From sequence record NC_042128.1: a stretch of 64,000 nucleotides of DNA. The stretch is one strand, 5' to 3'. Positions within the stretch are counted from its first letter, which is position 1. The number at the start of each line of letters is the position of its first letter. Shown one piece after another: positions 57,582-57,657 of the stretch. The notes under the pieces are model-generated. The model had not been told where the DNA came from. It saw only the letters and a program-made list of their open reading frames with translations, and did not search any database. The position numbers and the translations under genes were made by a program. Source of the DNA: Escherichia phage RCS47.

Positions 57582-57598
57582 ATTGCTCTAATAATTCC
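57582..57598 (+). promoter_or_regulatory. C1 operator-like motif (14/17), left arm of a ~75-bp palindrome
   Basis: attgctctaataattcc. Confidence 0.35.
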
Positions 57599-57640
57599 AT
57601 ATTTTTAAAACGTGATGTACACTCATCACGTTTTTTATTA

Positions 57641-57657
57641 GAGCAATCTACAAGGTG
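57641..57657 (-). promoter_or_regulatory. C1 operator-like motif (14/17) on - strand, right arm of palindrome
   Basis: reverse complement attgctctaataaaaaa; between the two lies the perfect hairpin aaaacgtgatg-tacactc-catcacgtttt. Confidence 0.35.

Follow-up and report, generated by a model that had tools for sequence, protein, structure and literature searches.

The 66-bp palindrome that lies between pmgQ and pmgR is best explained as a composite of three overlapping signals, each of an ordinary kind: two operators for the C1 repressor, which form its outer arms, a rightward terminator, which its inner hairpin would provide, and the predicted promoter PpmgR. We give this reading of the pmgQ–pmgR intergenic region a probability of about 80%. 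The locus itself is already known and ordinary. It is the Op86a/Op86b–PpmgR region of P1, and its operators and predicted promoter have stood in the public P1 and P7 annotations since 2003–2004; what our analysis adds to that annotation is a comparative separation of the constraint on the operators from the constraint on the RNA. Positions refer to the window, that is, the whole stretch of DNA analysed (64,000 nucleotides), and the features are collected in Table 1.

Table 1. Features in and around the palindrome, with their positions in the window.
Feature	Position	Strand	Details and basis
pmgQ (hdmD in P7)	56879..57580	+	ORF list and P1 and P7 annotation; stop codon TAA at 57578-57580
C1 operator OpmgRa (former Op86a), ATTGCTCTAATAATTCC	57582..57598	+	14/17 match to consensus, 13-bp core perfect; first 13 bases form the left outer arm
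PpmgR, predicted sigma-70 promoter	57583..57611	+	-35 TTGCTC at 57583-57588, 17-bp spacer, -10 TAAAAC at 57606-57611; labelled 'predicted' in AF234172
Inner hairpin, stem AAAACGTGATG/CATCACGTTTT, loop TACACT	57607..57636	+	Core CGTGATG/CATCACG, then TTTTTT (57631-57636)
C1 operator OpmgRb (former Op86b), ATTGCTCTAATAAAAAA	57631..57647	-	14/17 match to consensus, core perfect; right outer arm; shares bases with the hairpin T-run
pmgR (shtA in P7)	57662-57880 (57652..57880 with ribosome-binding site)	+	Ribosome-binding site AAGGTG at 57652-57657, ATG at 57662; first Op86-controlled gene
pmgS (shtB in P7)	57882..59144	+	Second gene of the Op86-controlled unit; ORF list and P1 and P7 annotation
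Strong terminator-like hairpin, AATGCTGGTGG...CCACCAGCATT, then TTTTT	59164..59197 (hairpin 59164-59192)	+	Consensus scan; 11 pairs, 6 of them G-C

Where does this element reside? A 1.6-kb query around the palindrome gave full-length matches to P1, P7, SJ46 and other Punavirus records at 98.5–99.6% identity (99.1–99.6% to P1 and P7 at the Op86 locus), and by its sequence the stretch belongs to a P1-type phage/plasmid. A 281-bp core of the region is present in 687 PLSDB plasmid records, chiefly from Escherichia and Salmonella. The gene located 5′ of the palindrome, pmgQ, which RefSeq labels a glycosyltransferase, closes a block of five genes (pmgN, pmgO, pmgP, ppp and pmgQ) that overlap or are tightly packed; in the P1 annotation, this block sits behind the predicted promoter PpmgN and the operator Op83. 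On the other side, the pmgR–pmgS unit probably ends at the strong hairpin that follows pmgS. Further to the right, between Op88 (59723–59739) and the next gene on the + strand, we noted a G+C-rich hairpin, ACATGCCGCGCCTTGCGGCATGT followed by TTTTATTTTC, at 59772–59794. Read on the − strand, it looks like a leftward terminator; transcripts under Op88 control, which run on the + strand, would carry it as a stable hairpin in their 5′ untranslated region.

From 57582 to 57647, the sequence reads ATTGCTCTAATAA-ttccatattttt-AAAACGTGATG-tacact-CATCACGTTTT-TTATTAGAGCAAT. A repeat finder returned two pairs of arms: outer arms of 13 nt (ATTGCTCTAATAA, 57582–57594, and TTATTAGAGCAAT, 57635–57647) and inner arms of 11 nt (57607–57617 and 57624–57634), the latter 6 nt apart, with 100% complementarity in each pair. 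The nested inverted repeat described in the first-pass annotation is thus real, and both of its arm pairs are perfect, including the 11-bp stem of the hairpin. Two of its dimensions had to be corrected: the palindrome measures 66 bp rather than 75 bp, and its loop comprises the 6 nt TACACT, because the loop given as tacactc contained a surplus c ('tacactc-catcac'). Bases 57648–57657 are situated outside the palindrome and carry the ribosome-binding site of pmgR. The arrangement is asymmetric, in that 12 unpaired bases (57595–57606) separate the left outer arm from the hairpin, whereas the right outer arm adjoins it with no gap. When folded as RNA, an 81-nt segment reached −26.9 kcal/mol, compared with −6.9 ± 2.5 kcal/mol for shuffled sequences (z = −8.1), and none of 200 shuffles folded as well. 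The palindrome is far from a chance occurrence.

The outer arms had been described as operator-like and as a possible repressor site, and this description holds: by position and sequence, they are the annotated C1 operators Op86a and Op86b of P1 and P7. Op86a occupies the position of the protein_bind feature at 82152–82168 of AF234172 and corresponds to Op(sht[a]) of P7, and Op86b occupies that of the annotated feature at 82201–82217 of AF234172 and corresponds to Op(sht[b]) of P7. The wording in AF234172 for OpmgRa is 'phage repressor C1, monovalent C1-controlled operator', with control of pmgR and pmgS, and the P7 record (AF503408) annotates both arms as C1 operators that control the sht operon. 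A script comparison found both 17-bp sites, together with 12 bp of flanking sequence on each side, to be identical in AF234172 and in the stretch. C1 itself would be expected to bind at these two sites. The operator consensus, ATTGCTCTAATAAATTT, is an asymmetric 17-bp sequence, and 22 operators are dispersed over P1 (PMC8546580). Within the window, nine sites match it with three or fewer mismatches, against 0.32 expected, and these include Op68, Op72a/b, Op82 and Op88; the arm motif itself occurs at 13 sites with two or fewer mismatches, against 1.9 expected. The c1 gene of P1 is found at 93231–94082, which by collinearity lies beyond the window; relatives that keep the operators encode C1 with 76–100% identity, the lowest value being that of the homologue in Cronobacter phage JK004 (76%). 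Op86a on the + strand and Op86b on the − strand face each other with a centre-to-centre distance of 49 bp, and the outer arms are complementary because one asymmetric site stands there in both orientations. A full-text literature search for 'Op86' returned nothing relevant. As a separate observation, a site at 54865–54881 on the − strand (TATGCACTAATTAATTT) matches the P1 operator Oppp/Op83 and differs by one base from the P1 sequence (CATGCAC...); with five mismatches to the C1 consensus, it is the weakest operator match in the region.

The first reading overlooked PpmgR, the predicted promoter that is the annotated reason for the operators. Its −35 hexamer is included in Op86a and its −10 hexamer overlaps the 5′ arm of the hairpin; if the annotated −10 is correct, transcription would start at about 57618–57620, inside the hairpin loop. 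The promoter agrees with the consensus at three of six −35 positions (TTGACA) and at four of six −10 positions, which is below the threshold of our consensus scan. Against the prediction, the −10 hexamer is weakened in JK004 and in eight viral contigs (variants given below), and the true start may therefore be elsewhere, for example if a hexamer in the loop (TACACT or TATCAT, of the form TAnnnT) serves as an alternative −10. A search by eye for promoters with a start upstream of the hairpin gave no convincing −35/−10 pair. In favour of the prediction, the same layout, an operator, seven T-rich bases and a TAnnnn hexamer, was also found at 20683, 22344, 38982 and 59723. Written as the + strand module TTGCTC-N17-TAnnnn, the sites at 20683, 22344, 38982, 57582 and 59723 carry the hexamers TAAGTC, TAAGTG, TATGTC, TAAAAC and TAAAAC, respectively, and over the 30 positions of the module, Op86a and Op88 agree at 25. 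For Op68, the promoter given in the P1 record (Pdmt, not flagged as predicted) stands further downstream than the shared candidate hexamer.

We consider that the inner hairpin is most likely a rightward intrinsic terminator that closes the pmgN–pmgQ unit. Its stem begins 27 nt after the pmgQ stop codon, and TTTTTTAT comes immediately after its 7-bp core, which contains four G-C pairs and encloses a 6-nt loop. The fold of the hairpin RNA has a predicted energy of −13.4 kcal/mol (z = −6.1); the stem is nevertheless modest, in that four of its 11 pairs are G-C. Neither the hairpin nor PpmgR was listed by the consensus scan, and we read this omission as a limit of the scan rules and not as absence; in the case of the hairpin, we think that the extension of the stem into the A- and T-tracts uses up the T-run. 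The GenBank record of P1 has no terminator feature here, but it also has none anywhere in 60000–94800, and hence its silence carries little weight. A search of Rfam with 57300–58100 (E ≤ 1) gave no match, and the hairpin is therefore not a known structured RNA family. Our search found no Term-seq or 3′-end data for P1, and the text of a paper on P1vir RNA-seq is silent on pmgQ, pmgR and pmgS. Inside pmgS, 112 nt into the gene, there is a further, terminator-like + strand hairpin with a T7 run (57994–58021, GTTGTGATGACCTCACAGCACGTTTTTTT). An 80% direct-repeat match (57997–58021) to the 3′ half of the Op86 hairpin made it a candidate for a related copy; this candidate was rejected, as both the stem and the T-run are lost in the Salmonella and JK004 genes, and the likeness is probably due to chance.

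How might the constraint on the operators be told apart from that on the stem? Diverged relatives were retrieved by similarity of the PmgS protein, independently of the element itself. These were Cronobacter phage JK004, whose PmgS is 68.6% identical, and three Salmonella plasmids, whose PmgS is approximately 74% identical to that of JK004; alignment showed that all four retain a 66-bp element at the corresponding site. Approximately 120 further P1-type loci came from two scans of IMG/VR, and 21 distinct variants were tabulated from them. A scan for the two-arm pattern in a collection with one genome per species found two contigs, both from Escherichia, a small number because the collection holds a single genome for each species. 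A distant, P1-like Pantoea plasmid was set aside as uninformative: its PmgS-like gene is 23.5% identical, but neither C1-type operators nor a comparable hairpin lie upstream of it. The equivalent intergenic region of this plasmid (Pantoea sp. CCBC3-3-1, NZ_CP034366.1, L006 2150–2260) contains a different inverted repeat, AAGATACTAAAATAT...ATATTTTAGTATCTT, which may be an operator of a different repressor specificity.

The two pairs of arms vary in different ways. Both 13-bp operator cores were unchanged in 113 of 113 loci recovered by a search that was anchored on the hairpin core only and was thus unbiased for the arms, and the same holds for the lineages retrieved through PmgS, those of the Salmonella plasmids and of JK004. 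The only outer position that varies (columns 1 and 66; the first base of Op86b is A, T or G) does so without compensation in Op86a. The outer arms thus vary as a conserved protein-binding sequence would, and not as an RNA helix would. In the inner stem, by contrast, a single pair of the 11 is invariant, two carry changes in both partners and six vary solely by G·U wobble, and 97.1% of the tabulated cells remain paired. The double-sided changes, from G-C to A-U and from A-U to G-C, occur in the Salmonella and JK004 lineages, and the compensatory changes represent few independent events in two diverged lineages. In JK004, the + strand RNA keeps the full 11-bp stem (−14.0 kcal/mol), whereas the − strand reaches −5.8 kcal/mol; three positions are G·U pairs, which are C·A mismatches on the opposite strand. 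Among the P1-type variants, those that occur at two or more loci (A-to-G at the first and fourth stem positions, C-to-T at 8′) all keep the + strand pairing, and the six variants that break a pair affect one pair each and were each seen in a single locus. The T6 run is present in every variant recovered (as T7 in two loci), and the loop pattern TAnnnT is kept in all lineages; the A-tract 5′ of the stem, which leftward termination would need, is not conserved and reads GAAG in JK004. Covariation and strand bias together indicate that the inner stem is constrained as a helix in + strand RNA.

The first-pass annotation had suggested a bidirectional terminator, and of this suggestion the rightward half is plausible, given the T6 run, the position after the pmgQ stop codon and the compensatory changes, while the leftward half is unsupported. 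In its full form, the proposal combines a bidirectional hairpin with two operators that cooperate through C1-mediated DNA looping at an especially strong site of repression, and we consider it improbable. The stem of the P1 type and that of the Salmonella plasmids do have an A-tract on one side and a T-tract on the other, and each folds with the same energy on the two strands (−13.4/−13.4 and −14.0/−14.0 kcal/mol, respectively); looping by C1 has also been reported at the Op99 operators. However, JK004 has lost both the − strand stem and the A-tract while keeping the + strand stem, and − strand RNA would have no more than UUUU after the core stem before the sequence turns to AAAAA. In addition, the annotated genes from pmgL to hot (P1 78602–86830) are on the + strand without exception, which leaves a leftward terminator no convergent transcription to act on. 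As for looping, the 49 bp between the sites correspond to approximately 4.7 helical turns, a very small spacing for a simple loop and one that would put the sites out of phase.

Two further proposals would treat the palindrome, or its inner part, as a single structure. According to the first, which we regard as very unlikely, all 66 nt form one long RNA helix in read-through transcripts (13 + 11 pairs with a 12-nt bulge), for example an RNase III site or a 3′-end stabiliser that separates the pmgQ and pmgR mRNAs. The full structure is the predicted minimum-energy fold, with the energy and z-score given above for the 81-nt segment, but the outer arms show no covariation, and their sole variable position breaks a pair. 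The operator consensus, which occurs elsewhere in the window at sites that stand alone and unpaired, accounts in full for the conservation of the arms, and the outer helix needs a T-run that has already been transcribed, so that it could form only in transcripts past the point of termination. The other proposal, that the inner palindrome acts at the DNA level, as the binding site of a dimeric non-C1 protein or as a point of cruciform extrusion, has hardly any probability in our estimation. A perfect 11-bp inverted repeat with a 6-bp spacer and a loop pattern common to all lineages would suit such a site; against this, the half-site sequence is not conserved, and complementarity is maintained by double changes and by G·U wobbles, which are mismatches in DNA and number three in JK004. 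A search of the 1.3 kb around it showed no second copy, save for a non-conserved partial match inside pmgS.

Returning to the composite of two operators, terminator and promoter, we propose that its parts would work as follows. In + strand RNA, the hairpin and the T6 run would act as an intrinsic terminator for the upstream pmgN–pmgQ unit. Transcripts from PpmgR would start in the loop without the 5′ arm, and would therefore escape the terminator. In the lysogen, C1 on Op86a would occlude the −35 hexamer, and C1 on Op86b, at approximately +13 to +29 and on the DNA of the U-tract, would block both promoter escape and residual read-through. Inactivation of C1 would then allow transcription of pmgR and pmgS.

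A stronger version of this proposal, which we put forward tentatively and consider unlikely, is that the signals overlap by design, as an insulator, rather than through accidental crowding: the terminator would close the upstream unit, the promoter would fire inside the hairpin so that termination could not affect its own transcript, and C1 on Op86b would serve in lysogens as a roadblock that backs up a leaky terminator. If the element were such an insulator, selection would favour RNA pairing over the strength of the −10. The −10 hexamer is TGAAGC in JK004, and in eight viral contigs it is TGAAAC (three contigs) or TAAAGC (five contigs). Each of these changes retains the RNA pairing and weakens the −10, and TGAAGC and TGAAAC lose the key A at the second position. 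On this reading, the A-to-G changes that keep G·U pairs suggest that pairing has been favoured over −10 strength. To our knowledge, no terminator-embedded, repressor-bracketed promoter has been described for P1.

Beyond the biology of P1, the element is of little import, although a correct description of it could help in the engineering of P1 phagemids and in the annotation of P1-like plasmids, such as those in the 687 PLSDB records.

How does the element compare with known systems? It is closest to OpmgRa/OpmgRb and PpmgR of P1 and P7, with which it shares the locus, the operators, the flanking genes (pmgQ and pmgR–pmgS) and the positions of the −35 and −10 hexamers. The operators show no difference, and the hairpin between them is present without annotation in the P1 and P7 records. 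A second likeness is to the bivalent C1 operators Obanab/Op72ab and Oc1ab/Op99ab, which also consist of two inverted C1 sites at a C1-controlled promoter with their AT-rich ends facing each other. In the bivalent operators, however, the sites overlap with an offset of 11 bp (43527 and 43538 in Op72ab); the offset of the Op86 pair is 49 bp (57582 and 57631), and the pair is therefore not a member of the bivalent subtype. Unlike the overlapping sites of Op72ab and Op99ab, those of Op86 enclose the hairpin, the −10 hexamer and the presumed transcription start. We also observed that deletion of the 40 internal bases 57595–57634 would leave ATTGCTCTAATAATTATTAGAGCAAT, a perfect palindrome of 26 bp that resembles a bivalent operator (compare Op72ab, 43527–43554, ATTGCTCTAATAAATTTATTAGTGTAAT). 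A possible reading of this likeness is that an insertion has split a bivalent operator to give Op86, another that it is coincidence; the observation concerns the sequence and is no evidence of origin. Finally, the hairpin resembles the intrinsic terminators of E. coli and its phages in its stem-loop, in the six T residues that immediately follow, in its distance of 27 nt from the stop codon and in its orientation. It differs from ordinary intrinsic terminators in that a promoter −10 and a repressor site overlap it, and in that its stem is extended by A/U pairs and is moderately stable.
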